From positions 7,567-71,566 of the forward strand of contig JBLYPW010000004.1 of NCBI GenBank assembly GCA_048538275.1: a DNA stretch of 64,000 bases, written 5' to 3'. The translations under genes and the position numbers were made by a program. The stretch is from Candidatus Komeilibacteria bacterium. GTDB lineage: Bacteria; Patescibacteriota; Patescibacteriia; UBA1558. The notes beneath the pieces are model-generated. The model ran no database searches. It saw nothing but the letters and a program-made list of their open reading frames with translations, and was not told where the DNA came from. Positions 9,189 through 58,765 of the stretch are shown one piece after another; positions within the stretch are counted from its first letter, which is position 1, and every line of letters starts with the position of its first letter.

Positions 9189-9242
9189 AATGGTAAAAAA
9201 CTCCCGCGTAATATATTACACGGGAGTTTATCATAAATACTA

Positions 9243-10226
9243 CTATTGTGCCTCGGGAATAATGATGCTAAATTTCGCCCCTTCTCCCGGACTAGACTTA
9301 ACCTCAACTTCACCGTGTAAAAAATCACTAACAATCTTCTGTACCTGATAAAGTCCCAATCCCTGACCATGAGCACGCGTACTATCCTTTGGTAAAAAAA
9401 TCTTTTTTTGTAAATCTTTTGGTATTCCAGGACCATCATCCGCAACAGAAATTTTTATTTTTCTATCTACCTCCTCCGCATCTAAAATAATCTTCCCTCC
9501 CGCTGACATTTCCTCCCTGGCATTATTCACAAACTCCTTGATAATCTCGGTGATGATCATGCCATGACTCATGCGTACATCATAATCTTCACTAACAGCC
9601 GCACTAACAAGCACCGGGTATTGTTCAGTAGATTCATTGTTTAAACGAGCGCTTATGTGTCTCAAATAATGTAACATGTTTACGTCTTTGGGATTACCTT
9701 GTTCCAAAATATTTAAAAAATTTTCTTTATCCAATCTATTGCTGTCATCTATGCCCACACTGACCACCTCATTTAGCGTCTTAAATTCATGCGCCTGAGC
9801 TAACATAGTTATTAACCGACCCTTTTCATTGGCCGCTTCAAAATACTTACGACCACTATGATTCACCATGGCAATACTAAAATACAGCAAAGAAAACTTA
9901 TCCTCGTGAGCTTGTCTTAAATCATTAGACAACTTATCAAAACTCTCCAATGCTTGACGAGCAATGCGGGCCAATTCATTAGCTTCTTGAATAACCTTAT
10001 GATCATGGTCAACTTTCTCTGTTGCGACAGTAGCCGACAATAATTTAAACTGTTGGCTAACATTTTTTACACCGCTCTCATAAGCTGGCCACAACTGGCG
10101 CTCCACAAACTCTCTCCAAGCTTCTTTTTCTTTCTCCCAATTTTTATTAACCTCCTCCATACGGGTGGCGTCCACCATGCCCGTAGCTAATTCAGGACTA
10201 TGCAAAATATTAGAAAAAAATTTCAT
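9243..10226 (-). CDS. Cytoplasmic histidine kinase-like ATPase (HATPase_c), orphan
   Basis: C-terminal G-boxes DDGPGIP and GQGLGLYQVQKIV. The longer ORF to 10289 starts at TTG; the ATG at 10226 is preferred. No response regulator adjacent. Confidence 0.65.
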   Translation of the reverse strand: MKFFSNILHSPELATGMVDATRMEEVNKNWEKEKEAWREFVERQLWPAYESGVKNVSQQFKLLSATVATEKVDHDHKVIQEANELARIARQALESFDKLSNDLRQAHEDKFSLLYFSIAMVNHSGRKYFEAANEKGRLITMLAQAHEFKTLNEVVSVGIDDSNRLDKENFLNILEQGNPKDVNMLHYLRHISARLNNESTEQYPVLVSAAVSEDYDVRMSHGMIITEIIKEFVNNAREEMSAGGKIILDAEEVDRKIKISVADDGPGIPKDLQKKIFLPKDSTRAHGQGLGLYQVQKIVSDFLHGEVEVKSSPGEGAKFSIIIPEAQ

Positions 10227-10345
10227 ATTATTATATTTTAATAAAAGTTCGTCTTTCGCAAAGATAACAAAAATAACGATAAAAGTCAAGGCTAAAAAAT
10301 TGCAAAATCATTGCCTTGGCTACCAAAAAATAGTATCATTAGACC

Positions 10346-10927
10346 ATGATTACATATTTACAAGGCACGGTAAAACTAAAAACAGATAAATATTTTTTGC
10401 TACTGGTAAACAATATTGGTTACCAGGTTTTTAGCAGCGAAACATTGCTCGCCGGACTGATTATTGACCAAGAAATGACAGTCTATACCCACCAATATGT
10501 TAAAGAAGACGCTTTAGATCTTTATGGTTTTGGCACTTTAGCAGAATTAGAATTTTTCCAACACCTTATCAATATATCCGGTGTCGGGCCAAAATCGGCT
10601 TTGGCAGTATTATCTCTAGCAAAATTGGATGACATAAAAAAAGCAATCTATAGAGGAGATCCTACCCTACTCAAAAAAGTATCTGGCATCGGCCAAAAAA
10701 CCGCCGAGCGCATCGTAGTGGAATTAAAAAATAAAATTACCGCACTAGCTACTGACTCTGGCTCCTTAACCGATGCAAACGGCGCTAATGAAGAGCTAAT
10801 TTCCGCCTTAGAAGCGCTGGGCTATAATATGACACAAATCCGACCAGCCCTCCAACACCTGCCAACAGATCTGCCGGATATCGCTCACCAAGTCAAAGCC
10901 GCTCTAAAAATCATTAACAATAAATGA
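10346..10927 (+). CDS. ruvA: Holliday junction DNA helicase subunit RuvA
   Basis: MITYLQGTVKL... start and HhH region GVGPKSALAVL. Confidence 0.9.
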   Translation: MITYLQGTVKLKTDKYFLLLVNNIGYQVFSSETLLAGLIIDQEMTVYTHQYVKEDALDLYGFGTLAELEFFQHLINISGVGPKSALAVLSLAKLDDIKKAIYRGDPTLLKKVSGIGQKTAERIVVELKNKITALATDSGSLTDANGANEELISALEALGYNMTQIRPALQHLPTDLPDIAHQVKAALKIINNK

Positions 10928-27210: not shown

Positions 27211-28641
27211 ATGTCGCTGACTAAAAAAGTCGCTTACAATACTATAGTACAATTTGTCGGCAAACTTATAAGCACCGTAATCGGTGTAGCGATTGTAGCT
27301 CTAATAACTCGCCACCTAGGGCAGGTTGGCTATGGTCAATACACCACCGCTTTAGTTTTTGCCCAATTTTTTGCAGTTATTATTGATCTTGGTCTTTACA
27401 TAGTTTTGATCCAAGAAATTTCTGATCCCCAAACCGATACCCGCCGAGCTGTCAGTAATATTTTTACCATCCGACTATTATCAGCCGCCATTGTTTTTGT
27501 AGCTGCTCCTTTAGTCGCCTTGCTTTTTCCTTATGACGCCATAGTCAAACAAAGCATAATCTTGATGTCCATATCATTTTTTTTCTTTACCCTGGCTCAA
27601 GTATTGGTGGCTCTTTACCAAAAACACTTACAAATGGACCGCGTGATTATTGCCGAAGTTTTGGGAAGGCTTGTTTTTTTGCTTAGCATAGTCTTGTTTG
27701 TTGTTTTGCAAAAAGGATTACTTTATATTGTTGCCGGTAATATTATATTCAATATCATTTACTTTATAATAATATTTATCAAAGCGCGCGGTTATACTCA
27801 TTTTGGCATTAGTTTTGACTGGTTATATTGGGGTCGTCTTTGGCACAGACTATGGCCCATAGCCCTAACCTCTCTACTGACGCTAGTATATTTTAGAGCT
27901 GACACCTTGATACTTTCTGTTTATAGACCGGTAGCTGAAGTAGGCATATATGGCGCCACTTATAAAGTTTTAGAAATAATCGGTACCTTTCCTCACATGT
28001 TCCTTGGCTTAATATTACCTATTTTAACTGCCGCTTATGTTGGTAAAAATCTAGAACGCTTTCACCGTGTTTATCAAAAGGTGTTTGATTTTTTTCTGAC
28101 CATAACCATTCCTTTAATTGCTGGTAGTTTATTGTTGGGGGAAAGGGTCATGGTGTTGATTGCCGGTCCAGAATTTTTTGTTTCTGGCGTCGTGCTAAAA
28201 ATTCTCATCTGGGCCACTGCTTTTATATTTTTTGGAAATTTGTTCGGCTATATAATTCTGGCTATTGATAAACAAAAAGCGATGATACCATATTATATAA
28301 TAACAGCCGTATTATCATTAGTATTATACTTTATATTTATACCGCGCTATTCATATTGGGCAGCTGCTTGGTCCACGGTCATCATTGAATTGCTTTATAT
28401 GATATTTGCCCTAATTGTATGTTACCGTTATGCTCAAATACGTCTTTCTTTACGCTTGGGATTTCATATCTTATTAGCAACGTTCGGCATGAGCATAGTG
28501 ATAAAATTATTATTTGCCTGGCCACTGTGGTGGCTGTTATTAGTGGCTATTATTGCTTATTTTGCCATACTTTATATTAGCGGCGGTATTCGTCCTGACA
28601 TTTTGGCAGAGCTTACCAATAAACAATCCGATGCTCAATAA
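27211..28641 (+). CDS. MOP-superfamily polysaccharide/oligosaccharide flippase (Wzx-like)
   Basis: 476 aa, about 12-14 TM. N-terminus KVAYNTIVQFVGKLISTVIGVAIVALITRHLG is typical of the polysaccharide biosynthesis protein family. Confidence 0.65.
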   Translation: MSLTKKVAYNTIVQFVGKLISTVIGVAIVALITRHLGQVGYGQYTTALVFAQFFAVIIDLGLYIVLIQEISDPQTDTRRAVSNIFTIRLLSAAIVFVAAPLVALLFPYDAIVKQSIILMSISFFFFTLAQVLVALYQKHLQMDRVIIAEVLGRLVFLLSIVLFVVLQKGLLYIVAGNIIFNIIYFIIIFIKARGYTHFGISFDWLYWGRLWHRLWPIALTSLLTLVYFRADTLILSVYRPVAEVGIYGATYKVLEIIGTFPHMFLGLILPILTAAYVGKNLERFHRVYQKVFDFFLTITIPLIAGSLLLGERVMVLIAGPEFFVSGVVLKILIWATAFIFFGNLFGYIILAIDKQKAMIPYYIITAVLSLVLYFIFIPRYSYWAAAWSTVIIELLYMIFALIVCYRYAQIRLSLRLGFHILLATFGMSIVIKLLFAWPLWWLLLVAIIAYFAILYISGGIRPDILAELTNKQSDAQ

Positions 28642-30010
28642 TATCCTCATCATCTTATTTTTACTTGGCTATACTTGGTTGATTTGGCGTCAGCCGGTTC
28701 GTGGCGTCTATATAATCACTTTATTATTGCCTACTTATTTGATTCGCTTTGTTTGGCTAAACATCCCTTTCACTTTGCTAGAAATGATGATTGGGTTATT
28801 ATTTATTGTTTGGTTGATAAAGCTTGGCCTCAATCATCAGCTCAATCTGCGCTTTAGTGCTTGGCTTAGCCGTCTATGGAAAAACACTAAATCTGTTAAT
28901 AAAAATTATAATTTAATTCCACCGCTTTTACGCTGGCCCATCATTGCCGTGCTAGCCACCAGCCTAATCGCTTGGCTTGTTTCGCCCAATTGGCTAGGGG
29001 CGGCTGGCATTTGGAAAGCTTATTTTTTTGAACCGGTTTTATTCTTTATACTATTTGTTTATTTGATAAGAAAAAATTCACAATTAAAAAACATAATAAA
29101 CGCCTTAGCTATTTTAAGTTTTGTTATATTCATATACGCCCTCATCCAAAAAACTACTGGTTGGAATATTAATAATCTAGAATGGTTATTGCCAGCCACC
29201 AGACGAGTAACAACGTTTTTTGGTTATCCCAATGCCAATGGACTGCTCCTGGCACCGCTAGTAATAATTTTTCTAGCCAGTCTTTGGTTGCCTGATCGTC
29301 TTGTCGGTAAAATATTACGTGCTGTGGCTTTGATTGGAGCGTGGCTAACAATGTTTTGGGCTAACAGCGAAGGCGCTCTAATTGGCGCCGCTCTGGGCAG
29401 CATAACGGTATTATTATTATTCAAAAATACTCGCTTTATTGCCACCGTGTTTATTGGTCTGGCAATCGTTGGCCTGGTTCTTCACCCTTCTACCAAAGAA
29501 GCAGTGTGGCAAAAAATAACCTTGCAAGACTTTTCTGGACAAATTCGCCAAGCACAATGGACGGAAAGCCTGAGCATGCTGCGCGATAACCCGTGGCGCG
29601 GTGGTGGACTGGCGAATTATCAAAATGCCCTCATCCCTTATCACCGCTCTGGCCTGACTATCAATGGCCAATGGCAACCAATAGAAATATTTTTATACCC
29701 CCATAATATTCTGCTAAATTTCTGGACAGAGCTTGGTCTATTGGGCCTCTTAGCCATTATTTGGCTGGGCCTAGCCGGTTGCGTTCTTTTACTTAGACTA
29801 TTTATAATTCTACCCAAACTACCAAAGTATAAACAAACTGATAGTCGTCCTTGGGCTATTGGCTTGACCGGCATAGCGGTTGCGATTATAATACACGGCC
29901 TGGTTGATGTGCCTTATTTTAAGAATGATTTAAGTGTTTTAGCCTGGCTTTTCCTGGGAATAATAGTGGTGGTTTATAATTATTCCTTAGAAAAAAACAT
30001 ATCAAATTAA
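28631..30010 (+). CDS. O-antigen ligase / Wzy_C family membrane protein
   Basis: Polytopic. Wzy_C-type periplasmic loop region (PHNILLNFWTELGLLGL). The ORF is open from 28553; the ATG at 28631 overlaps the upstream stop by 11 nt. Confidence 0.65.
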   Translation: MLNNILIILFLLGYTWLIWRQPVRGVYIITLLLPTYLIRFVWLNIPFTLLEMMIGLLFIVWLIKLGLNHQLNLRFSAWLSRLWKNTKSVNKNYNLIPPLLRWPIIAVLATSLIAWLVSPNWLGAAGIWKAYFFEPVLFFILFVYLIRKNSQLKNIINALAILSFVIFIYALIQKTTGWNINNLEWLLPATRRVTTFFGYPNANGLLLAPLVIIFLASLWLPDRLVGKILRAVALIGAWLTMFWANSEGALIGAALGSITVLLLFKNTRFIATVFIGLAIVGLVLHPSTKEAVWQKITLQDFSGQIRQAQWTESLSMLRDNPWRGGGLANYQNALIPYHRSGLTINGQWQPIEIFLYPHNILLNFWTELGLLGLLAIIWLGLAGCVLLLRLFIILPKLPKYKQTDSRPWAIGLTGIAVAIIIHGLVDVPYFKNDLSVLAWLFLGIIVVVYNYSLEKNISN

Positions 30011-31780: not shown

Positions 31781-31887
31781 CCAAATTTCATAAATAACAA
31801 CCCTTGAGATAAAACCTTGTTCTTAAATTAAGAAAAAGGTTTTTTCTTTGTCAAAATCTTAAAAAAATTGTATAATTTTATTAGTTT

Positions 31888-32760
31888 ATGAAAAAAATTA
31901 CCAAAGCAATTATACCGGTAGCCGGTCTAGGTACTCGCTTTCTACCCGCTACCAAGGCTCAGCCCAAAGAAATGCTCACCTTGGTGGATAAACCACTCAT
32001 TCAATATATCGTTGAAGAGGCGGTAGCGGCTGGCATTGAACAGATTATTTTTGTCACTTCACAGACCAAGCGGGCTATTGAAGATCACTTTGATCGCAAT
32101 TTTGAGCTAGAATACCGCTTGCGACAAAAAAATAAAAAAGACGCATTAAAGGATATTACAAAAATTTCTGATCTAGCAGAATTTATATACATTCGTCAAA
32201 AAACACCTCGTGGCTTAGGTCACGCCATTCACTGTGCTAGCCCTTTAATCAATGATGAACCATTTGCTGTATTCTTAGGTGATGATATTATCGCAGCGCC
32301 GCAACCGGCCATCGCCCAATTGATAGAAACTTATAATAAATATGAAGACGTGGTGCTGGGTGCTGTTGAAGTAGCAAAGGATAAGGTGTCGCGCTACGGT
32401 ATTATCGCCGGCACTAAAATAGATAACAATGTTACAGAGGTTACAAATTTAATCGAAAAACCGACAGTCAAAGAAGCTCCTTCTAACTTAGCTATCATTG
32501 GTCGCTATATCTTGCGTCCGGAAATTATGACCATACTACAAGACACCAAGCCCGGCAAAGGAAATGAAATTCAATTAACCGATGCCTTGCAAACCCTAAA
32601 CAAATCACGCGCTATGTATGCTCGAAAAATAACCGGCCAGTATTTTGACTGCGGCAGCAAGCTGGGGTTTTTACAAGCCACCGTACACTACGGACTAGAA
32701 CACAGCAATCATAAAAAAGATTTTTTCCAATATCTAAAAACTATTATCAACAATAAATAG
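31888..32760 (+). CDS. galU: UTP--glucose-1-phosphate uridylyltransferase
   Basis: AIIPVAGLGTRFLPATKAQPKEMLTLVDKPLIQYIVEEA. Confidence 0.9.
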   Translation: MKKITKAIIPVAGLGTRFLPATKAQPKEMLTLVDKPLIQYIVEEAVAAGIEQIIFVTSQTKRAIEDHFDRNFELEYRLRQKNKKDALKDITKISDLAEFIYIRQKTPRGLGHAIHCASPLINDEPFAVFLGDDIIAAPQPAIAQLIETYNKYEDVVLGAVEVAKDKVSRYGIIAGTKIDNNVTEVTNLIEKPTVKEAPSNLAIIGRYILRPEIMTILQDTKPGKGNEIQLTDALQTLNKSRAMYARKITGQYFDCGSKLGFLQATVHYGLEHSNHKKDFFQYLKTIINNK

Positions 32761-34161
32761 ATGCCTGCAAAAAAAATAAAGTTATATATTCTGGTCTTGT
32801 TGCTGATGGCCATGCCCTTGTCCGGTTTTGGTTGTAAGTTCTCACAAAGTAATGAAGTGCAGCAACTAAACAAGCCTGTCAATTTGTCCTGGTGGGGCGT
32901 ATGGGAAGAATCCGCGCAAGTAGCCAGCCTGATAAATGCTTACCAATCCGTTCACCCTAATATAAACATAACTTATCGTAAGTTTCGCTGGGAAGAATAT
33001 GAAGCAGCCCTAACCCGTGCCTGGCTAGAGCAACGCGGTCCAGATATTTACTCTATTCCGGCAAGCTATCTACATCAATACCAAAGCTTGATCCAACCAA
33101 TGCCAGCAACCATGCGCTTACCCTTTGTGGAAATGCAAGGCGCTATAAAAAAAGAGCCTGTGACGGTGATAAAAACTGTCGCCGGACTCACGCCCAGCAA
33201 ACTAAAAGATTTATTTGTCGGCGCTATTGCTGATGAAGCGGTCATAGCTGATCAAATATACGGACTGCCTCTCAGTCTGGATAGTCTGGCCCTATACTAT
33301 AATCGTGACATTCTTAACAATGCCCGCATACCACTACCGGCAACCACCTGGTCAGAACTAGTAGAACAGGTGTCCCAACTGGCTGTTTTTGACCAAAATA
33401 ACAATATCAACCAAGCTGCTATTGCGCTGGGCACAAGCGATAACATTCCCCGTTCTAGCGATATTTTATCCCTACTAATGATGCAGAACGGCGCCACTAT
33501 GAGTGATGATGACGGCAGAGTAATTTTTAACCAGCCACCAGAAGGAGTAAATTTTTATCCGGCTAAAGACGCGCTAGACTTTTATACCAGCTTTGCCAAT
33601 ACCAGCAAGGCGGTCTATACCTGGAACGAAGACATGCCTGACGCTTTGGAAGCTTTTACTAGCGGTCGCCTCGCCTATTTTATCGGTTATAGCTACCAGC
33701 TACCCATCATCCGCGCGGCCGCTCCCAAACTAAACTTCAATGTCGCGCCCATGTTACAAACAATGCCCGATGTACAAGAAATAAATTTTGCCGACTGGTG
33801 GGCCCTAACCACTTATTTTGGCGCCGATGAAACTAAGATTGCTCCGGCTTGGAATTTTATAAAATTTATCACTACCACGCCGGAGGTATTGGGACCATAC
33901 TTGACAGAAGCAAAAAGACCAACCGCTCTCCGTGCTTTAATAAATGACCAAATACAACAAGACGGTATCTCTGTTTTTGCCAATCAAGTTTTGACCGCCC
34001 AAAACTGGTATCGTGGTTATGATGCCGTAGCGGCCGATCAAGCAATGCAGCATATGATTGATCAAGCCAATCACGACATTACCGATAAATTTACTCTCAA
34101 CAATTTACTAGACCTAACGGCCGATAAAATTAACCAAACCAATCAACCGCCACAACCATGA
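32761..34161 (+). CDS. Extracellular solute-binding protein (ABC transporter family-1 SBP-like lipoprotein), orphan
   Basis: Signal peptide with GFGC lipobox. SBP-like fold length. No permease or ATPase genes adjacent. Confidence 0.65.
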   Translation: MPAKKIKLYILVLLLMAMPLSGFGCKFSQSNEVQQLNKPVNLSWWGVWEESAQVASLINAYQSVHPNINITYRKFRWEEYEAALTRAWLEQRGPDIYSIPASYLHQYQSLIQPMPATMRLPFVEMQGAIKKEPVTVIKTVAGLTPSKLKDLFVGAIADEAVIADQIYGLPLSLDSLALYYNRDILNNARIPLPATTWSELVEQVSQLAVFDQNNNINQAAIALGTSDNIPRSSDILSLLMMQNGATMSDDDGRVIFNQPPEGVNFYPAKDALDFYTSFANTSKAVYTWNEDMPDALEAFTSGRLAYFIGYSYQLPIIRAAAPKLNFNVAPMLQTMPDVQEINFADWWALTTYFGADETKIAPAWNFIKFITTTPEVLGPYLTEAKRPTALRALINDQIQQDGISVFANQVLTAQNWYRGYDAVAADQAMQHMIDQANHDITDKFTLNNLLDLTADKINQTNQPPQP

Positions 34162-34937
34162 TAAAAAAAATTATTATCCTCATAGCGCTATTACTGCCAC
34201 TCGTCGGGCAAGCTGCCATCTTAGACAATCCCGAATTGTTTCCCCCAAATAATAGTAGCCATACTACCTGTATAGAAGACGGTAGTTGTACCCTAGACCA
34301 AGGCTTTGGCGCCTTTGTAGCGCTCGGACAATGGGGTCTTGGCGTGGTGGGCGCGGCCGCTTTATTGATGTTTATTTATGGTGGTTTTCAGTGGCTAACG
34401 GCTGCCGGCAATCCCAGCAAAATTGAATCCGGCAAAAAAACACTGGTAGCATCATTAACAGGTGTGATAATTGTATTATTGTCTTGGCTTATAGTACAAA
34501 GCATTTACCAACCTCTGACTGGTAATAATTTGACTGGCGCGGGCGCGGTTAATCAAGCTGATATTTGTCTCAGCGCCGCAGATGGTACCGATTGCCGTGG
34601 TGGCTTGGGACAATGTCAAAATGGCGAGTGTGTACAAAAGTGCGACCTATTAAATGATCCTTCCTATGCTTGCCGGGAAAGCGTCTATTGTGATACAGAT
34701 TATGAAATACCAGGACAATGTTTTGGAGCTAGTAATATCCTTTGTTGCAAAGAATACCAGGCACCTGCTTTAGAAACAAAAGACCTAAACAATTATAATA
34801 TAAATCCAGTAAACGACTGTACCAATGTGTACGGGCAGGAATACGGTTGTTACGAACCCTACCTTTGTTGGGAAGGTACAGAAAAAAGTGGAGGACACTG
34901 TATAAACGACCTTGTGTGTTGCGTGTTAGGAGAATAA
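34158..34937 (+). CDS. TrbC/VirB2-like pilin (CPR T4SS-pilin type) with about 140-aa Cys-rich C-terminal extension
   Basis: Signal peptide. Core GGFQWLTAAGNPSKIESGKKTL plus C-terminal TM. About 19 Cys afterwards. ATGA overlap with the SBP. Confidence 0.7.
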   Translation: MIKKIIILIALLLPLVGQAAILDNPELFPPNNSSHTTCIEDGSCTLDQGFGAFVALGQWGLGVVGAAALLMFIYGGFQWLTAAGNPSKIESGKKTLVASLTGVIIVLLSWLIVQSIYQPLTGNNLTGAGAVNQADICLSAADGTDCRGGLGQCQNGECVQKCDLLNDPSYACRESVYCDTDYEIPGQCFGASNILCCKEYQAPALETKDLNNYNINPVNDCTNVYGQEYGCYEPYLCWEGTEKSGGHCINDLVCCVLGE

Positions 34938-34963: not shown

Positions 34964-35287
34964 ATGAAAAAAATAACCCCTTGGCTTTTTAGCCTCACCG
35001 TGCTTTGGACCATTGCCTTACCAGCCTTGGCAGTACAAATAAACAACCCTATTCAGGTTAATTCTGCTGCCGAGCTGGCCGGCTTGATCATCAAAACCTT
35101 ACTTGGCTTGGTCGGCATAATTGCCCTAATTTACTTTATTTTAGGCGGTTTTATGTGGATGACAGCCGCTGGCAATCAAGAAAAAATCAAAAAAGGTCGT
35201 GACACTCTGGTATGGGCGACAATCGGCTTGGTAATAATCTTCGCTTCCTATAGTATTGTATATTTTGTACTCGGTATTTTTGATTAG
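34964..35287 (+). CDS. TrbC/VirB2-like pilin paralog 2
   Basis: Signal peptide. GGFMWMTAAGNQEKIKKGRDTL. C-terminal TM. Confidence 0.75.
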   Translation: MKKITPWLFSLTVLWTIALPALAVQINNPIQVNSAAELAGLIIKTLLGLVGIIALIYFILGGFMWMTAAGNQEKIKKGRDTLVWATIGLVIIFASYSIVYFVLGIFD

Positions 35288-35892: not shown

Positions 35893-36279
35893 ATGATGAA
35901 AAATATCTTTAGTCGTACCAATATTGTCGCCTTTCTATTGTTGGCTATAATGTTTGTGCCAGCTATTACCATGGCTAGCGGATTAGATACTAACTTGGGT
36001 CTAAATTATGCTGGCAATATTGGCCTGGGCGAAACAGACGCCATAGACGTTGTTACAAATATCATACAAGTAATCTTGGGCTTCTTGGGATTGGTGGCGG
36101 TAGTAATTATCTTAATTGGTGGATTCACTTGGATGACAGCCGGTGGTAATGAGGATAAGGTCAAAAAAGGCCGCACCTGGATTATCAACGGCGTTATTGG
36201 CTTAGTGATAGTGCTAGCTGCTTTTTCCATCGCTTCCTTTGTTATCAATGCCAGCAAGAACGCTACTGGCCTTAATTAA
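35893..36279 (+). CDS. TrbC/VirB2-like pilin paralog 4
   Basis: GGFTWMTAGGNEDKVKKGRTWI. Confidence 0.75.
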   Translation: MMKNIFSRTNIVAFLLLAIMFVPAITMASGLDTNLGLNYAGNIGLGETDAIDVVTNIIQVILGFLGLVAVVIILIGGFTWMTAGGNEDKVKKGRTWIINGVIGLVIVLAAFSIASFVINASKNATGLN

Positions 36280-36363
36280 TATAGTCTAAATTTTGGCGGG
36301 CCAGACTTGGCCCGCCCTGATGTGGCCTATATTATGATTTGGTTAAATAAAAAAAATCAATCT

Positions 36364-36750
36364 ATGTTATTTGTCAGCCTAATTTTATTTATGGCTGCTT
36401 TTGTTTTGTTTACCACGATTAGCCCTGCTCTAGCCTCTTCCGGCCTAGATGATGCTAAAGAGGGCCTAGGACAGGCCGCTCGTTATGGCGGCTTTACGAG
36501 CGACGCAGAAGGACCAACTAGTCCAGTAGATTTAGCTTCAAAAATAATTAAGACAATTCTTGGTTTTGTTGGCACTATATTTTTAATCCTTATTATAGTC
36601 TCCGGCTTCCAGTGGATGACAGCCGGTGGTAATGAAGAAACTATAAAAAAAGCCCGCGGTAGAATGACTAGCGCCGTTATTGGTTTGGCAATCATTCTCG
36701 GGGCTTGGGTAATCACCGACTTTGTAATTAATTCTATAGTATCTTTATAA
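36364..36750 (+). CDS. TrbC/VirB2-like pilin paralog 5
   Basis: SGFQWMTAGGNEETIKKARGRM. The start could instead be 36307 or 36334. Confidence 0.7.
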   Translation: MLFVSLILFMAAFVLFTTISPALASSGLDDAKEGLGQAARYGGFTSDAEGPTSPVDLASKIIKTILGFVGTIFLILIIVSGFQWMTAGGNEETIKKARGRMTSAVIGLAIILGAWVITDFVINSIVSL

Positions 36751-36751
36751 A

Positions 36752-37150
36752 ATGAATTTTCATAACAAAAAAAAGCTGCTACTCTGCTTCATTTTAATGG
36801 GCTTGATTGTGTTACCCGCCTTAGGCCACGCCGCGCTTCTAAAAGAAGGCACCGACATAGGCGGCGGTGCCAAAAATTTTGCTGAACACTTGGGTTATCA
36901 AACAAACAATACTAATACACCAACCGATGTCGCAGCATATATCATAACCTTGCTATTAAGCTTTGTGGGCACCGTCTTTGTAATATTAATTATCGTCTCC
37001 GGCTTCCAGTGGATGACGGCCGGTGGTAATGAAGAGACTATCAAAACATCACGCAAGCGAATAATTAATGCGACTATTGGCTTAGTAATAGTTTTAGCCG
37101 CTTTTGTTATCACCAGGTTTGTCTTATTTAATATACAATATGCCGTTTAA
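36752..37150 (+). CDS. TrbC/VirB2-like pilin paralog 6
   Basis: SGFQWMTAGGNEETIKTSRKRI. Confidence 0.75.
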   Translation: MNFHNKKKLLLCFILMGLIVLPALGHAALLKEGTDIGGGAKNFAEHLGYQTNNTNTPTDVAAYIITLLLSFVGTVFVILIIVSGFQWMTAGGNEETIKTSRKRIINATIGLVIVLAAFVITRFVLFNIQYAV

Positions 37151-37556
37151 AATAGTAAAAAAAACACTAAGCATAGTTAGCCTCTTTATTCTGCTGCTAC
37201 CCGCTGTGGTAGGGGCGGCTGGAAATCAGCCAGCCAGCGACCTTGATCAATTGCAAATGGGACAATTTGATGCGTTAGAAAATGCCGTCACCGGGCAAGG
37301 CGACCAAGAACCAGCCTCAGTAGATAGTATAGTGGCCTACATTATCAGGATGGCGCTTAGCTTTCTCGGCTTTATATTTATAATATTAATTATCGTCTCC
37401 GGCTTCCAGTGGATGACGGCCGGGGGCAATGAAGAGACTATCAAAACATCACGTAAACGCATGACCAATGCTGTCATTGGACTAGCCATAGTAATAGCCG
37501 CCTTTGCTATCAGTGAATTTGTATTAGGAACAATTATCAATGCCACATTACGCTAA
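37140..37556 (+). CDS. TrbC/VirB2-like pilin paralog 7
   Basis: SGFQWMTAGGNEETIKTSRKRM. Overlaps paralog 6 by 11 nt. Confidence 0.75.
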   Translation: MPFKIVKKTLSIVSLFILLLPAVVGAAGNQPASDLDQLQMGQFDALENAVTGQGDQEPASVDSIVAYIIRMALSFLGFIFIILIIVSGFQWMTAGGNEETIKTSRKRMTNAVIGLAIVIAAFAISEFVLGTIINATLR

Positions 37557-38040
37557 AATTACCGTTCTAGTTGTTTTTTCCCTCACCATCCTAATGAGTG
37601 CGGGTATTTTTTTTAGTCAACCCGCTCTTGCCAGTTCTGACCTGGGCAATACCATCTTAAACGAACACCAACAATTTCAAAACGAAGTAGGGGTGCTAAC
37701 CCCAGAAAGAGACTTGCCTGATATTATTGTTATGCTGATTAAATCAATCCTCGGGCTATTGGGCCTAGTTTTTGTCGTATTAATACTACAGGGAGGCTTT
37801 CAGTGGATGACTGCCGGGGGTAATGAAGCCTCAATAAAAAGCGCTAAGAATAGATTAAAAAACGCTATTATCGGATTGCTCATAATTATAGCGGCTTATT
37901 CTATTACTTTGTTTGTAATAAATGCTCTCAAAAAAAGCACCGGCGCTCAATATCAAAGCAGCTCCTGCCAAAGTAACGATGATTGTCCTAGTGGTTTTCG
38001 TTGTAGCGAGGCTTTACACACCTGCGTAATAAAGTTATAA
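37540..38040 (+). CDS. TrbC/VirB2-like pilin paralog 8 with short Cys-rich C-terminal tail
   Basis: GGFQWMTAGGNEASIKSAKNRL followed by SSCQSNDDCPSGFRCSEALHTCV. Confidence 0.7.
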   Translation: MPHYAKITVLVVFSLTILMSAGIFFSQPALASSDLGNTILNEHQQFQNEVGVLTPERDLPDIIVMLIKSILGLLGLVFVVLILQGGFQWMTAGGNEASIKSAKNRLKNAIIGLLIIIAAYSITLFVINALKKSTGAQYQSSSCQSNDDCPSGFRCSEALHTCVIKL

Positions 38041-38098
38041 ACCAAAATCATCAGCTAATAAAAAACACACCTTCCTAGGTGTTTTTTTATTTATCTTT

Positions 38099-39700
38099 TT
38101 ATTGAACCGCAAATATCTCTGCCTCTTCGTCACTATACACTGGCAGGAAATAAACATTGTTTATTAGTTTAGCTAATAGCTTATCATTCTTCTTGTCAAC
38201 CAAAATGTACTTGGCTTGCAAACGATCATGAAAAAGCTGATAAGGCGGTACCAGATTACGATCTTTCACCAAATCAGTTAAAGCCAAAACTCCTTGCGGA
38301 TACACGGGCAAGCTTAAGCGGGGATCAAGTCCGTAAAAATAATTATTATTGGTATTATAATAAAACAAACTGGGCCATTGTCCCCAATTATCATTTACGA
38401 CCAAACTATGATCAGGCGTATTCATTGACAACCATTGCGCGGCAGCCTGCAGGTGAGTTAACGATATGCCCTTGTTACTGTCTGTTTTCACCATATAAAA
38501 ATTACGTCCTGTGATCAGCAAGGCTATAAAAAGCCCTACCCACAACCAACGACGACGACTTTTATACGGCTGGCAATAATTTTTCCACCAGGCTGATAAG
38601 CCCTGTCCTCCCAATAAATCACGCCACAATAAAGCTAAAAATATGACCATTGCCGGTGCCGAGTATTCAATAAAACGACGCGCGTTAATTGTTGCTATAA
38701 ACATAATAAGGGAAAAAAGCGCCATAAAAACAGTTGCCTTTTCTATTTTTCGCGGTCGCAATATCCATAATAAACTAGCCGCCATAATAACAAACAACAA
38801 ACCGGCGCTGCCCAATAAAGCATATATATTATAAGGATACCACTCGCTCCCTACATTAAGCAGCCGATAATCTATATTGCGAACCGCTATATCTAAGACT
38901 TGCTGACCGTAAAAATATAAGTTTTGTGGCCAATATGGATGACTGATAACTCCTCCGATAATGCCCAACAAACTCAACAATAACAAGCCCCATTTGCGCG
39001 CCTGCTGTTTACCAACCAACCCCAATTTAATTAAGACTTGTTTGATTCTAGATCTTAGTTGGGCTAATTTGTCATCACTGTGCGAACGATAAAAAATATC
39101 TATTAGCAACCACAAACCGATAACAGCCGGCAAAATCAAAAATCCTCCATACAGCCAAACAAATAACCAACTAATCAAAAACACCTTGAAATAACGATAG
39201 TGCATCGCCCAGTGCATGCCCAACAATAAAAATATTAAAGCCCAAGACGAGGCTTTTACCAAAGAAATTCTAAACAAAAAAGGATAAACACTCAATAATA
39301 CCGCCAGCCAGGCTGCTGGCCACGGCGCTCGATATTTTTTCAAACCAAAATATAATAAGGTTAATAAAAGGCTAGAAGTGAAGACGGTGGCTAATTTTAT
39401 ACCCACCAATGGCGGCAACCACTTTACCCAAGGGACGAGCCACAAGTGATATAGCCAGTGATGATCAGTAAAGCTTTGCGCTAAAGTCGTGCCTTGCAAC
39501 CAAGGAAAGCTGCCTAATATTGGTTCATTCTCCATTAAAACTGCCATTTTCGCGTGATAAAAAGCATCCGGATCCATAAATGTGGGGCTGACTTGTATCC
39601 AAGCTAGCAGCAAAAAACACAATAAAAAAACCACCAATACATCAAGCTGATGGGACAATAAAAAACCGATCACATTGCGCCACTTGTTCTTTAAAAACAT
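38099..39700 (-). CDS. Polytopic membrane protein, putative GT-C-fold glycosyltransferase-like
   Basis: 533 aa, more than 10 TM. Conserved-looking DPDAFYH loop after TM1. Family assignment tentative. Confidence 0.45.
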   Translation of the reverse strand: MFLKNKWRNVIGFLLSHQLDVLVVFLLCFLLLAWIQVSPTFMDPDAFYHAKMAVLMENEPILGSFPWLQGTTLAQSFTDHHWLYHLWLVPWVKWLPPLVGIKLATVFTSSLLLTLLYFGLKKYRAPWPAAWLAVLLSVYPFLFRISLVKASSWALIFLLLGMHWAMHYRYFKVFLISWLFVWLYGGFLILPAVIGLWLLIDIFYRSHSDDKLAQLRSRIKQVLIKLGLVGKQQARKWGLLLLSLLGIIGGVISHPYWPQNLYFYGQQVLDIAVRNIDYRLLNVGSEWYPYNIYALLGSAGLLFVIMAASLLWILRPRKIEKATVFMALFSLIMFIATINARRFIEYSAPAMVIFLALLWRDLLGGQGLSAWWKNYCQPYKSRRRWLWVGLFIALLITGRNFYMVKTDSNKGISLTHLQAAAQWLSMNTPDHSLVVNDNWGQWPSLFYYNTNNNYFYGLDPRLSLPVYPQGVLALTDLVKDRNLVPPYQLFHDRLQAKYILVDKKNDKLLAKLINNVYFLPVYSDEEAEIFAVQ

Positions 39701-39839: not shown

Positions 39840-40880
39840 TTAGGTTGCTTTGCTGGACAGCGCTTTTTTAAATTCATCAACCCAGGGTATAGCTATCGGA
39901 TCAACCTTATTAGCAACACTTATATGATAGCACAAATATGAACCAGATTGCAAAGTGGAAAAACTATCATGTAATAAACTATCGCCTGTTACTGTCATTT
40001 CCGCCCAGGCGACCTTCTGACGACTAAGAATATTTTGTGTCAATCTTATTCTTTTTTGTATTTCCTCACTATAATTTGAAGAATTTAAGAAAATTACCTG
40101 CAAATACTGTTTGATCACCGCTCGCGGTACTTGTAATGCCTCTAGCCAGTGGTGATTTAAATCCGGTAATGTTAACCACCAAGCTAATTGTTTAGCGGTT
40201 TCATTAACTTGGTTGGCTAAAATATGCGCATTACCAATCAAATGTTCGGCACCAACAAGTAATAAGGCTTTGCCTGCTACCGCCTTACCTAATTTAGCAA
40301 TTGCCTGATCGTCTGCCAATGTTTGATTGGCCTGTAAAAATTTTTTATCAGCTAGGCTGACTAATTTGGCTTTTTTTAAAACTTGTAAAAAAGCACCAAT
40401 GGAATAACCCAAGCCCCAACGCGGCTGCTTGGATGGATTAAAATTATCGCCCCATATTAAGCCGGGCACGCCTTGTTTGTGCAGAGCCGCCAGCTTGCCG
40501 CCGCCACTCAAAACATACCCCTTCAACTTCTTTTGTTTGACTTCATTTGCGCAACTTAAAACCTCTGCTGTGTTACCAGAATAGCTGGCTAAAACCACTA
40601 GGGTTTGTTTATTAACAAAGCCGGGCAAAGTATAGTCTGGCCTTAAAATTATAGGCACCTTAATCTGATCGCCTAAAACGTGGCGCACCAAATCATAACC
40701 AATATTAGAGCCGCCCATACCACAAATAACAACATTGCGAAAATTCTTATATCCGACCGGCCAGTCTGCTTCGGCTGTCTGTTGCCACCCCTGTTCTAAT
40801 TGCGCAGGAAGCAATCCAATAGACTGATAAACGCTGGCTTGTTGTTGAGAAACTTTATTCATATTAGTATTGTAATGCAT
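39840..40880 (-). CDS. SIS-domain bifunctional phosphoglucose/phosphomannose isomerase
   Basis: GMGGSNIGYDLV and SYSGNTAE SIS motifs. Size fits the PGI/PMI family. Confidence 0.7.
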   Translation of the reverse strand: MHYNTNMNKVSQQQASVYQSIGLLPAQLEQGWQQTAEADWPVGYKNFRNVVICGMGGSNIGYDLVRHVLGDQIKVPIILRPDYTLPGFVNKQTLVVLASYSGNTAEVLSCANEVKQKKLKGYVLSGGGKLAALHKQGVPGLIWGDNFNPSKQPRWGLGYSIGAFLQVLKKAKLVSLADKKFLQANQTLADDQAIAKLGKAVAGKALLLVGAEHLIGNAHILANQVNETAKQLAWWLTLPDLNHHWLEALQVPRAVIKQYLQVIFLNSSNYSEEIQKRIRLTQNILSRQKVAWAEMTVTGDSLLHDSFSTLQSGSYLCYHISVANKVDPIAIPWVDEFKKALSSKAT

Positions 40881-40982
40881 TTAAACAAAACACTCAATAA
40901 TCACCGGCTTAAAAACATTGATTTTTTACTCATTTTCCGCTACAATTTAATAAGTTTAAGTTTTATCAGCACAATAAAAACC

Positions 40983-41690
40983 ATGTCTGGACACTCAAAA
41001 TGGGCCACTACCAAACGTCAAAAAGCATCTGCCGACGCCAAACGCAGCAATCTTTTTACCAAACTAGCAAAAAACATTGCTATTGCCGCGCGCGACGGCA
41101 GCGATCCGGAGACCAATTTTAAACTTCGCATTGCCATAGACCGAGCCAAAAAGCTAAGCCTGCCTAAAGACAATATAGAGAGAGCCATAAAAAATGGCAG
41201 TGGCGAATTGACCGGCCAACAAATTGAAGAAATTCTCTACGAAGCTTATGCTCCGGATGGCATCGCGTTACTTATAGCCACTATTACTGACAACAAAAAT
41301 CGCACCGTTAGTGAAATTAAACACCTGCTGACAAAAGCTGGCGGTAGTTTGGGTAGCAGCGGCAGTGTTTTGTGGATGTTTACTAGGCGTGGCGTAATTT
41401 ATTTAAACGATTCTAACTTAAAAGAAGAGCAGGAGTTGGCGCTAATAGATGCCGGCGCCATTGATATTGATCGAAACGAAGACAAGATAATAATTTATAC
41501 TTCTGATACAGACTTTAAGGCCGTAGAAGAAGTGGCCCGCAATGCAAAACTAGATATTGATGATAGCGACCTAGAATATATTGCCAAGGACATTGTTGTC
41601 CCGCCACAACCAGATAAAATAACTAAATTAATGGATCAGCTAGATGAGCTAGATGACGTACAAAACGTCTATACTAATGCTGATGTTTAA
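40983..41690 (+). CDS. yebC: YebC/PmpR family DNA-binding regulator
   Basis: MSGHSKWATTKRQKASADAKRSNLFTKLAK. Confidence 0.9.
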   Translation: MSGHSKWATTKRQKASADAKRSNLFTKLAKNIAIAARDGSDPETNFKLRIAIDRAKKLSLPKDNIERAIKNGSGELTGQQIEEILYEAYAPDGIALLIATITDNKNRTVSEIKHLLTKAGGSLGSSGSVLWMFTRRGVIYLNDSNLKEEQELALIDAGAIDIDRNEDKIIIYTSDTDFKAVEEVARNAKLDIDDSDLEYIAKDIVVPPQPDKITKLMDQLDELDDVQNVYTNADV

Positions 41691-56044: not shown

Positions 56045-56520
56045 ATGCAGATCGTATTAACGTTTCTTTATCTGCTGGTGGGATTTCTACTGGCGATTCC
56101 GTACTGCCTGCTAGCGGGATGGAGCACGGAGAGTTACCCGATGGTTGCTTTCGTGATGCCTGATTCCTGTTCATCTGGCTCATGTTGGCGTTTTTCACAG
56201 GCGTGGTGGACGAGGGTCATCCGATCAGCTTTAACTGGCGCGCTGCCTTCGGCAAGGGTGACCGCCGAAGACTGACGGGATCTCCTGTCATGCTCTGGGC
56301 GTGGACTATCTACGGTTTTCTACCGGTGACTATCCACTGGAGCGCAGTGTTTTTAGGTAAAGTTGGCTATGAGACGGCCAGCTCGTTTCTGGATGCACAT
56401 CGTTACGGGAGCCCGTTCTTAGTCCTTATAGCGACCTTTATCCTACTAATTCTCAGCCGGCTAGCTATTAATGCGTCTGGTGCGGCAAAGAATATATGGA
56501 CGCGGCTCGTCAATCAGTAG
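56045..56520 (+). pseudogene. GC-rich (above 50%) frameshifted small membrane-protein gene, likely horizontally acquired
   Basis: Frame 2 ORF 56045..56275 (MQIVLTFLYLLVGFLLAIPYCLLAGW...) and frame 1 ORF 56164..56520 (FLFIWLMLAFFTGVV...ILLILSRLAI) overlap and together encode about 4 TM helices. G+C-rich codon usage unlike host genes. Confidence 0.4.
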
Positions 56521-56541
56521 CGAATGGTGTTCTATTCAATT

Positions 56542-56583
56542 GGGGCTCTCCACGGATAATCGTGAGTTGAGCCCCTTTTCTTT
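56542..56583 (+). terminator. Rho-independent terminator GGGGCTC/GAGCCCC plus TTTTCTTT
   Basis: 7-bp GC stem and T-run 22 nt after the 56520 stop. Confidence 0.6.
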
Positions 56584-57189
56584 AATTTCCTCTTTATTTT
56601 TATGTCATAATTGTGTTCGCAGCGCGCCTTCGGAATTATTGGTTGTAAAAGGACTGGAAATTGTTATCGGTGTGACAAAGTTATATTTTGCAAGGCGTTT
56701 TCCAGTTGCAGTAGGCATCAGAACCAGTTCGCGCTATTTTAAAAACAGAGCGCTAAGGCGCCCACGGGAAGCATTGGGAGGCGCTCACATTGACAAAAAG
56801 TATAATATTTGTTATTATTGCTTGATTGATTATAGAAATATAACAGCAAAAGCTTGCTTATAGGAGGCACATATTGGAAGCATTAGTGTTTCATTTGAAC
56901 GAAAGACTTGGTGTTTTTTTAGAAACAAAGCCTTTTTTTGTTTGTAACCCGGGTGCTTGTCTATTTAAATCCGGTCGCAATTTTGCCACAAGCAATTAGT
57001 TCAGTTTTGGAGAGTCGGTAGAAGGAGCCTCGCCGGGCATGTGATATATGTTTTATGCCATACAAACAGCTTTTGTTTTTATTGGGATAAAGGAGAAAAA
57101 TTCGGCTGTTTTTGGTTCAATGCTAGTCAGTTTTATTTTATCCATAATAATTATAGTTGCGGTCACAGTTAGAAACCATGATGACCGCA

Positions 57190-58122: not shown

Positions 58123-58199
58123 GGGGTATTAGCTCAGTTGGCTAGAGCGCTTCCTTCGCATGGAAGAGGTCGCCGGTTCAAATCCGGCATACTCCACCA
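58123..58199 (+). tRNA. tRNA-Ala (anticodon CGC), G3:U70, encoded CCA
   Basis: Hand fold: acceptor GGGGTAT/ATACTCC, anticodon loop TTCGCAT, T-arm GCCGG TTCAAAT CCGGC. Confidence 0.85.
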
Positions 58200-58227
58200 C
58201 CCAAAACCAACATTTGTTTAAGAATTT

Positions 58228-58653
58228 ATGCAAATTGATAAAAAGAAAACATACTTGGCGTATATAGTTAACGCCGTAGGTTCTAAACTATGGCGGGATT
58301 TATATTTTGAAGACGGTAAGAACATAACAAGCTCCGGCGAATATAGCTGCGCTGTTTTTGTTTCCACGGTCTTATATATTTTGGGTTGGTTGGATGGTTT
58401 GCATGCGACTGTAATTTCAACAGAAGCAGCTCTGCAAAATTCGGGTTGGCAAGTTGTTGAAAAACCAAAAGCAGGAGACGTGATTGTTTGGCCGGAAAAC
58501 GACCAGGGTAACAAACACATTGGTTTTGTAATTTGCGACAGTGAAGCGGTAAGTAATAGTAGTCGGTTAAAAAGAATAGTTAAACATCATATAACTTACA
58601 AAGGGAAAAGAAATTGGCAAGCATTGTATCGTTTTCCAGGGATGAATGATTGA
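58228..58653 (+). CDS. NlpC/P60-like papain-fold cysteine peptidase domain protein, no signal peptide
   Basis: SSGEYSCAVFV (the Cys motif, cf. DCSGFV) and GDVIVWPEN...HIGFVI (the His motif, cf. GDLVFF..HVGIYIG). Confidence 0.5.
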   Translation: MQIDKKKTYLAYIVNAVGSKLWRDLYFEDGKNITSSGEYSCAVFVSTVLYILGWLDGLHATVISTEAALQNSGWQVVEKPKAGDVIVWPENDQGNKHIGFVICDSEAVSNSSRLKRIVKHHITYKGKRNWQALYRFPGMND

Positions 58654-58688
58654 CAGAAGCGAAAAAAATCATATAATAGAATCTACGT

Positions 58689-58765
58689 GGGCCCGTAGCT
58701 CAGTTGGTTAGAGCGCTTGCATGGCATGCAAGAGGCCGCCGGTTCGAATCCAGTCGGGTCCACCA
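58689..58765 (+). tRNA. tRNA-Ala (anticodon GGC), G3:U70, encoded CCA, one C:A mismatch in the T-stem
   Basis: Hand fold: acceptor GGGCCCG/CGGGTCC, anticodon loop ATGGCAT, T-arm GCCGG TTCGAAT CCAGT. Confidence 0.8.

Follow-up and report, generated by a model that had tools for sequence, protein, structure and literature searches.

Does a gene that begins as a pilin and ends in a dense cysteine region encode one protein, and if it does, what might that protein do at the surface of the cell? The question is raised by the first of eight pilin genes arranged in tandem within a 64,000-nucleotide stretch of DNA from Candidatus Komeilibacteria bacterium (the window; assembly GCA_048538275.1, contig JBLYPW010000004.1, positions 7,567 to 71,566 of the forward strand). 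We find that the open reading frame (ORF) at 34158..34937, here called paralog 1, is one genuine gene and a specialised member of the VirB2/TrbC-like (PF18895) pilin family of Patescibacteria. An earlier reading made from the letters of the DNA alone (the sequence-only reading) had described this ORF of 259 aa exactly where we find it, and the peptides that it quoted are present; as it had proposed, a single gene carries a pilin-family hairpin fused to a Cys-rich C-terminal region of disulfide type. An identical 259-aa product was called by NCBI (MFW0838139.1, 'MAG: pilin [Candidatus Komeilibacteria bacterium]', where MAG denotes a metagenome-assembled genome) on an 89-kb contig, and paralog 1 shares 100% identity with one of the matches in our family search, P0001. 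The parts of the gene are as follows.

34158..34937, plus strand: paralog 1, Cys-rich VirB2-like pilin, 259 aa plus stop
34158..34214, plus strand: signal peptide, residues 1-19 (MIKKIIILIALLLPLVGQA), with a hydrophobic segment centred on residues 10-16, an AlphaFold2 helix over residues 2-23 and an inferred cleavage site
34269..34289, plus strand: N-terminal Cys pair, C38-x5-C44 (CIEDGSC), predicted to be extracellular, a marker of the pilin subfamily
34293..34517, plus strand: VirB2/TrbC-like helical hairpin (PF18895), residues 46-120, with AlphaFold2 helices 46-80 and 86-120 at a predicted local distance difference test score (pLDDT) of 86-95
34518..34565, plus strand: variable Gly/Asn-rich linker, residues 121-136, with an N-L-T sequon; AlphaFold2 pLDDT below 50 for residues 124-132
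34566..34748, plus strand: module 1, residues 137-197, a 10-Cys domain of pattern C-x8-C-x6-C-x4-C-x3-C-x9-C-x5-C-x9-C-x7-CC
34749..34934, plus strand: lineage-specific extension, residues 198-259, an acidic linker followed by a Tyr/Trp-rich 6-Cys unit (C221-x9-C-x5-C-x10-C-x5-CC)

The protein contains 18 Cys in total, C38 and C44 near the N-terminus and 16 within residues 137-255. The C-terminal region is Cys-rich, as first reported, with a corrected count of 16 Cys in 123 residues in place of 'about 19 in about 140'. Measured against the mean Cys content of the long ORFs of the window (0.64%), this density has a binomial probability of ~2e-16; paralog 1 is the most Cys-rich ORF of the window, and no other comes close. 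Each of its segments holds an even number of Cys (2, 10 and 6), and the single module of 140 residues that had been implied resolves into a conserved 10-Cys module of 61 residues and a lineage-specific 6-Cys extension.

Membership of the VirB2 family is carried by the hairpin. PF18895 (T4SS_pilin, where T4SS is the type IV secretion system) matches residues 56-114 of paralog 1 with 38.8 bits, against a cutoff of 26.6, and all eight paralogs score above that gathering score, which upholds the name 'pilin' given earlier and specifies its kind as the VirB2/TrbC type of type IV secretion. Several paralogs also match PF04956 (TrbC/VirB2), with a passing score for paralog 2, and an NCBIfam pilin-like conjugal transfer family gave a sub-threshold match that covers the hairpin only. 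Paralog 1 shows three hydropathy peaks, and its two hydrophobic helices are joined by a basic loop, TAAGNPSKIESGKK, with three Lys; the loop motif GGFxW(L/M)TAxGN is common to paralog 1 and the seven neighbouring pilins. The A-x-A-like end of its signal peptide aligns across the family, and C38 is conserved in at least 90% of alignment A1. The N-terminal Cys pair is absent from paralogs 2-8, and paralogs 2-7 contain no Cys at all. The marks of a type IV pilin (T4P) are a short class III leader whose last residue is Gly, a site for prepilin peptidase and one hydrophobic N-terminal helix that contains Glu5; we considered and rejected this class for paralog 1, which has a Sec-type signal peptide, a two-helix hairpin and no match to a T4P family in Pfam. 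A profile search of the PDB with paralog 1 found no pilin. Many of the top matches in the family (P0004, P0006, P0011, P0013, P0014 and others) are long, at 300-820 aa, and carry 3-8 PF18895 hairpins per polypeptide; such tandemly fused 'pilins' are difficult to square with the classical pilin of a single subunit.

How far is the fusion conserved? An exhaustive search with full-length paralog 1 against 1.84 billion cluster representatives gave 16,935 matches. Among the best 150 of these, about 45 have Cys-rich tails after the hairpin and about 30 have module 1, as detected with a local hidden Markov model (HMM) that scores 53 bits on the window protein; in every one of the latter the module is fused to a PF18895-type hairpin. 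The named sources are all Patescibacteria, for example Komeilibacteria and the 'Parcubacteria group', and similar fusions, to which the sequence-only reading had pointed as a check, proved common in other members of the phylum. Positional orthologs of paralog 1 are present in the syntenic loci L001 (46% identity), L008 and L009. Word-index searches with the module only, as a single sequence and as a profile, returned nothing and missed known members too, and they carry no information on its distribution.

Within module 1, alignments A1-A3 show no or almost no variation at C137, C146, C153, C158, C162, C172, C188, C196 and C197. The module ends in C-x(5-8)-CC, which reads CPGGxxxxCC in most members and CFGASNILCC in the window protein. 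Family members with eight Cys lack C7 together with one Cys of the CC pair, a pattern that hints at a disulfide between C7 and C9 or C10. Between the Cys the family varies widely: in the 32-sequence alignment the mean pairwise identity is 36.9% for the hairpin, 10% for the linker and 16.6% for the non-Cys residues of the module. Judged from the alignment, this combination of a fixed disulfide scaffold and hypervariable loops would be typical of a binding or recognition surface. The Cys-rich modules have net charges of -6 and -7 in the window protein and are mostly negative across the family, in which the Cys-rich tails are very diverse and in some cases very long, reaching 37 Cys in 358 aa.

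Two AlphaFold2 runs, based on alignments of 32 and 26 sequences, predict module 1 with a pLDDT of 90-96 as a short helix, a beta-hairpin (151-154, 157-160), a helical turn and two further strands. The folded domain for which the sequence-only reading had looked is thus present over residues 137-197 (pLDDT ~95), and the extension over residues 198-259 is not confidently folded. The suggested resemblance to knottin or EGF-like domains was not borne out: no Pfam family matched the 137-aa Cys-rich region or any of its sub-units at E<=10, neither single-sequence nor profile searches of the PDB gave anything relevant, and Foldseek with the C-terminal model reached E=2.1 at best in the PDB, at a probability below 0.15, and found nothing in BFVD. 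Its insignificant top matches in the PDB were disintegrin, ADAM Cys-rich domains, tick carboxypeptidase inhibitor and cryptdin. The fold of module 1 is predicted with confidence and matches no solved structure; the module appears to represent a domain family not yet catalogued.

The extension stands apart from this conserved core. It is absent from the closest ortholog, P0002, a positional one whose sequence ends directly after the CC doublet. Its frame is open for 62 codons, where frame +1 contains 6 stops, and it is probably coding. The spacing of its Cys is approximately that of the C5-C10 half of module 1, and we tried residues 221-255 as a duplicate of that half; the HMM aligned in register but with -1.3 bits, and the proposal gained no support. 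In a shuffle test of the extension against module 1 the observed score was reached by 64 of 2,000 full shuffles and by 272 of 2,000 shuffles with Cys positions fixed, hhalign aligned only the CC, and DNA similarity did not rise above codon shuffles. Any putative relation between the extension and module 1 is one of Cys spacing alone. A lone 6-Cys unit of the extension type occurs in the family member P0045, which suggests that the C5-C10 half is able to stand alone.

What accompanies paralog 1 in the genome? Its ATG overlaps the stop codon of the upstream gene (ccATGAtaa), which encodes an orphan family-1 solute-binding protein (SBP), and the same pairing recurs in relatives. This is the strongest clue from the surroundings of the gene, and it is not mentioned in the sequence-only reading.

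32761..34161, plus strand: orphan family-1 SBP, predicted lipoprotein (Pfam PF01547, E 2e-15)
L001 8604-10004: SBP gene
L008 8613-10004: SBP gene
L009 8629-10008: SBP gene
L011 101-1495: SBP gene
L012 1304-2713: SBP gene
L002 5818-7227: SBP gene
L007 7551-8918: SBP gene

The SBP signal peptide ends in LSGFG-C25, C25 being the sole Cys of the protein, and a lipobox-like Cys (GFGC, GAGC or GFAC) is conserved among its orthologs. No ABC permease or ATPase gene lies adjacent to the orphan SBP gene (SBP_bac_1), in the window or in the related loci listed above. Full-length orthologs with 38-62% identity lie directly upstream of the Cys-rich pilin in L001, L008, L009, L011 and L012; the P0070 locus has the same SBP-then-Cys-pilin order, and L014, L015 and L016 have partial upstream SBP genes. 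An SBP gene is found upstream in 9 of 9 family loci that include upstream DNA, and in addition in L002 and L007. The overlap of SBP stop and pilin start (ATGA in the window) is usual and spans 4 nt. In seven loci short pilins of the same orientation come directly after the pair.

In L002 and L007 the pairing is kept and the Cys-rich region lies N-terminal of the PF18895-like hairpin. In L002 (Candidatus Uhrbacteria) the PF18895-like proteins that come after the SBP have 7 and 18 Cys (7229-7774 and 9410-10195), and in L007 the one that comes after it is 481 aa long (8921-10366), with seven C-x(5-9)-CC repeats and 49 Cys in all. Since the Cys-rich part can be placed on either side of the hairpin and both termini of a VirB2-type protein are expected outside, these variants support an extracellular location. 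L007 is labelled 'uncultured Bdellovibrionales', and the contig may be mis-binned. Two nucleotidyltransferase/HEPN-type toxin-antitoxin-like pairs are located between the SBP-linked Cys-rich pilin of L002 and the rest of its array (7871-9371), and an NTP_transf_2/HepT pair is found just upstream of the SBP in L012.

Arrays of this general kind are known. VirB2-like arrays are widespread in Patescibacteria, comprise 2-11 divergent genes and have T4SS components often near dnaA (PMC12102498), and such an array is essential in Southlakia epibionticum (PMC12102498; PMC10633639; PMC12857230). The locus described here resembles the published PF18895 arrays (Quinonero-Coronel et al. 2025, PMC12102498; Wang et al. 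2023, PMC10633639) in being a tandem array of eight divergent paralogs near dnaA, and differs from them in the Cys-rich ectodomain on the lead pilin, the Cys tail on the last pilin, the SBP lipoprotein upstream and the lack of virB4 or virB6 nearby. The published descriptions of Patescibacteria pilin arrays that we consulted mention neither Cys-rich addition, on the first pilin or on the last, nor the SBP lipoprotein upstream, and the literature that we searched holds no description of the 10-Cys module family or of its pairing with an SBP lipoprotein. The module family and the pairing appear to be undescribed, and the array itself is of a known kind.

How might such a protein work? We favour, with somewhat better than an even chance of being right, a reading in which paralog 1 is a specialised VirB2-family pilin that bears a disulfide-stabilised recognition domain on its extracellular C-terminus and acts in concert with the SBP lipoprotein, either at the tip or surface of a pilus or on the surface of the cell. 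The suggestion of the sequence-only reading, that the Cys-rich genes at the two ends of the array may encode tip or minor pilins, perhaps adhesive, is likewise a reasonable one. Sec export and cleavage of the signal peptide would leave the two-helix hairpin in the membrane, with the short basic loop facing inward and both termini outward, as in other VirB2-type pilins. With both termini outward, the N-terminal C-x5-C loop, the 10-Cys module and the 6-Cys unit (221-255) would all be extracellular. C-terminal peptide fusions to F-pilin were reportedly displayed on the pilus surface in work by Rondot et al. in 1998. Outside the cell the protein would be oxidised to 1 + 5 + 3 disulfides, presumably by machinery of the MdbA/VKOR type; an MdbA-like oxidoreductase and VKOR are enriched in genomes of the candidate phyla radiation (PMC6744442), and in the window the search for a disulfide-forming enzyme found only a cytoplasmic thioredoxin and thioredoxin reductase. 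With a proposed rigid disulfide scaffold and hypervariable, mostly acidic loops, the module would be a recognition or binding surface rather than a cationic toxin or an enzyme. Its gene stands first in the array, coupled in translation to that of a membrane-tethered SBP lipoprotein, and the product could be a low-copy subunit, either the first to be incorporated, at the tip, or one that decorates the filament. The Cys-rich domain would then be shown to the surface of a partner cell, alone or together with the SBP lipoprotein, with the seven short paralogs forming the shaft or serving as variants.

Two known designs offer partial parallels. PilB of Streptococcus sanguinis (PMC8179133) is a modular type IV pilin in which an adhesive module is grafted on to the exposed C-terminus of a minor pilin beside major ones; it belongs to the T4P superfamily, with a single N-terminal helix, a prepilin-peptidase site and other grafted domains, and the likeness would be one of design, not of homology. 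The VirB5 tip adhesins of Gram-negative T4SSs are alike only in the proposed role, in which a component of a VirB2 pilus, present in few copies, makes contact with the host; VirB5 itself is helical, a protein in its own right and without similarity in sequence or fold, whereas here the candidate adhesin is fused to a pilin. VirB5 was not found among the T4SSs of monoderm bacteria (PMC12857230), and the main Patescibacteria-type T4SSs are listed without it (PMC12102498), which leaves the role of a tip adhesin vacant.

Could the Cys-rich region be something other than a new recognition domain of a genuine gene? That it arose as an artefact, by a frameshift, by assembly fusion of two genes or by read-through past the true stop, is hardly credible. 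Residues 198-259 do lack a homolog and have a low-confidence model, and the closest ortholog ends right after the CC; against this, the extension is an open frame where frame +1 is broken by stops, its six Cys are even in number and fall into the spacing of the family, and the NCBI gene call for the MAG gives the same product. For the hairpin and module 1 this explanation is excluded, as the frame runs continuously from the one through the other and the fusion recurs in dozens of independent sequences and in syntenic positional orthologs; the frameshift that the sequence-only reading had named as a possible refutation does not account for such recurrence. Divergence of the module from a known small disulfide-rich superfamily (EGF, knottin, disintegrin-like or a hevein-like carbohydrate-binding domain) is improbable in our view. 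Small disulfide-rich domains, among them beta-defensin, EGF, knottin and disintegrin-like ones, resemble module 1 in Cys density, small size and a beta-hairpin core, here that of the AlphaFold2 model; disintegrin and ADAM Cys-rich domains head the insignificant Foldseek matches, and the extension is rich in Tyr and Trp like some carbohydrate-binding modules. Yet the Pfam, PDB sequence and profile searches at the thresholds given above were empty, Foldseek found nothing below E=2 in the PDB and BFVD, and ten Cys with a terminal CC fit neither EGF (6 Cys) nor the classic knottin (6 Cys). Still less probable, and very unlikely, is a defensin-, toxin- or effector-like payload, membrane-active or inhibitory, that would be delivered to a host. 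The C-x9-C-x5-C-x9-C-x7-CC part of module 1 recalls the beta-defensin consensus, C-x6-C-x4-C-x9-C-x6-CC, in its terminal CC doublet and, roughly, in its spacing; tick carboxypeptidase inhibitor and cryptdin are among the insignificant structural matches, and the tail of paralog 8 has a sub-threshold match to Toxin_12. Module 1, however, has ten Cys rather than six and is acidic where defensins are cationic, the structural matches all lie at E>2 with a probability below 0.15, Pfam has no match, and the module is tied covalently to a two-helix membrane anchor and shows no obvious site for cleavage.

The main rival, unlikely in our judgement, is that paralog 1 is a membrane-anchored partner of the SBP and not a pilus subunit. 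The hairpin would then act as a two-helix anchor only, the ectodomain would dock to or regulate the tethered SBP in the capture of glycans or nutrients or in sensing the host surface, and the short pilins would have a separate function. The pair of SBP and Cys-rich hairpin protein is more strictly conserved than the array, with stop and start codons that overlap in most loci, and it survives the N-terminal placement of the Cys-rich region in L002 and L007. Cys-rich tails of the greatest length seen in the family are hard to fit into a filament, and the window is without T4SS machinery. Paralog 1 nevertheless has a bona fide PF18895 match and the same loop motif as its seven neighbours, and the seven loci in which the pair leads directly into short pilins tie the two together. 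Several observations also weigh against the specialised pilin that we favour, some of them being points in favour of this rival. On the short contig of L012 the pair apparently has no following array, and no pilin follows it there, which fits a pilus-independent role. Among the scanned ORFs of at least 120 aa, which include every ORF large enough for VirB4, we found no VirB4, VirB6 or VirD4 in the 64-kb window and no T4SS assembly gene (VirB4, VirB6, VirB3 or others) in the window or the 20-kb orthologous loci, and the assembly machine is not shown for this genome; pilin genes lie away from virB4 in 813 of 1,948 assemblies (PMC12102498). Foldseek of the full model against the PDB gave only insignificant helical-hairpin matches, none below E ~2, the best pilus among them being the Aeropyrum conjugation pilus 8dfu at E=3.9. 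The surveyed literature reports no VirB2-type pilus visualised in any Patescibacterium, and there is no characterised precedent for a VirB2 hairpin that bears an ectodomain of 14 kDa, which might clash with the packing of a filament. Residues 198-259 have a pLDDT of 42-57, and no homolog of the extension was found by word-index search, by a genome scan with the single protein, which gave relatives at the level of the hairpin only, or by a metagenome scan with the C-terminal region.

The remaining seven genes of the array follow paralog 1 on the same strand.

34967..35287, plus strand: paralog 2, short VirB2-like pilin, 106 aa from ATG (PF18895 and PF04956); ortholog of gene 2 of L001, 63% identity
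35420..35800, plus strand: paralog 3, short pilin, 73% identical to paralog 4
35893..36279, plus strand: paralog 4, short pilin (PF18895)
36307..36750, plus strand: paralog 5, short pilin (PF18895); start uncertain between a TTG at 36307 and the internal ATG codons at 36334 and 36364
36752..37150, plus strand: paralog 6, short pilin (PF18895)
37140..37556, plus strand: paralog 7, short pilin (PF18895)
37540..38040, plus strand: paralog 8, last pilin of the array, 166 aa (PF18895); positional ortholog of gene 8 of L001
37966..38037, plus strand: tail of paralog 8, residues 143-166, SSCQSNDDCPSGFRCSEALHTCVIKL, with 4 Cys (C-x5-C-x5-C-x6-C)

The array of the window is collinear with that of L001, as a clear diagonal in the all-against-all comparison shows. 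Paralogs 3 and 4, 73% identical to each other, both find their best match in one and the same L001 gene, which speaks for a recent tandem duplication in the lineage; other pairs of paralogs are 29-55% identical. The tail of paralog 8 carries four Cys (C143, C149, C155 and C162) and not the six first counted, and the last gene of L001 also ends in a 4-Cys tail (C-x5-C-x6-C-x8-C); the observation that the first and last genes of the array bear Cys-rich tails extends in this way to a collinear orthologous array. The tail gave sub-threshold matches to TIGR04201 Myxo_Cys_RPT (17.5 bits, cutoff 25) and to Toxin_12 and Lustrin of Pfam, and the likeness to TIGR04201 is a common C-x-S-x-D-D-C-P-x-G-x-x-C motif short of a significant match. 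We also tried the tail as a homolog of the first 4-Cys part of module 1, and no such relation was detectable.

The genes around the array place it in a chromosomal setting, with dnaA and dnaN ~12-17 kb downstream.

31848..31876, plus strand: sigma-70-like promoter match, 11/12, the best ahead of the NTP_transferase-SBP-pilin string; possible operon start
31888..32760, plus strand: GalU-like nucleotidyl transferase (Pfam PF00483, E 1e-30), with its stop at 32760 abutting the SBP ATG at 32761
38067..38082, no strand assigned: terminator-like bidirectional hairpin just after the array
38099..39700, minus strand: convergent gene for a polytopic membrane protein of 533 aa, weakly similar to STT3/GT-C oligosaccharyltransferases (TIGR04154, E 1e-8, well short of the cutoff)

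The promoter-like element at 31848 and the terminator-like element at 38067 bracket the GalU-SBP-pilin string; the former is a consensus match only, in a region where the number of such matches is not above the shuffle expectation. In L008, L009 and the P0070 locus, too, the SBP gene comes after a GalU-like gene, and the order rpoC-ftsK-helix-turn-helix (HTH) gene-recA-flippase-Wzy_C-(GalU)-SBP-Cys-pilin-pilins is shared by the syntenic loci L001, L008 and L009. Unannotated proteins of 522-534 aa occupy the position of the STT3-like gene in L001 and L009. A Wzx-like flippase and a Wzy_C protein (O-antigen-ligase/PglL-family domain) flank the pilin operon at 27211-30010 of the window. To judge from these similarities, the Wzx-like, Wzy_C, GalU and STT3-like genes in the flanks, with the N-L-T sequon of the linker, may serve glycosylation of the pilin or of the surface.

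The rest of the window is housekeeping in content, with polA, uvrB, rpoBC, ftsK, recA, PBP1 and glycogen genes. At 58123-58765 a small CHAP-domain ORF (58228-58653) lies between two genes for tRNA-Ala (anticodons CGC and GGC), and a 130-aa ORF at 56471-56863 has six Cys, with CHNC and CYYC motifs, and no Pfam match. The TTG start listed for the YebC/TACO1 ORF (40800-41690) makes it overlap a divergent PGI-like gene (39840-40880) by ~80 nt; its Pfam match begins at residue 66, and the true start is therefore probably further downstream.

A large part of bacterial diversity belongs to the Patescibacteria, whose cultivated members live attached to host cells. Their VirB2-like arrays, essential in the one genetically tractable species, are without a known function, adhesin or receptor. 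Paralog 1 offers a concrete candidate for a determinant of host contact, with a predicted disulfide scaffold and hypervariable loops, a place at the head of the array and coupling to an SBP gene, and the SBP and paralog 1 together form a defined pair of proteins for expression, for binding tests and for tracking across host ranges. More tentatively, and with considerable doubt on our part, the SBP lipoprotein and the hypervariable Cys-rich VirB2-like hairpin protein might constitute an unrecognised host-recognition or nutrient-capture cassette of Patescibacteria, in which the Cys-rich domain would dock to the SBP or the host surface at or next to the tip of a VirB2-type pilus and fill the role that VirB5 has elsewhere. 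If that is so, the cassette would help to determine host range, and the PF18895 hairpin would serve these episymbionts generally as an anchor on which fast-evolving Cys-rich ectodomains are displayed.

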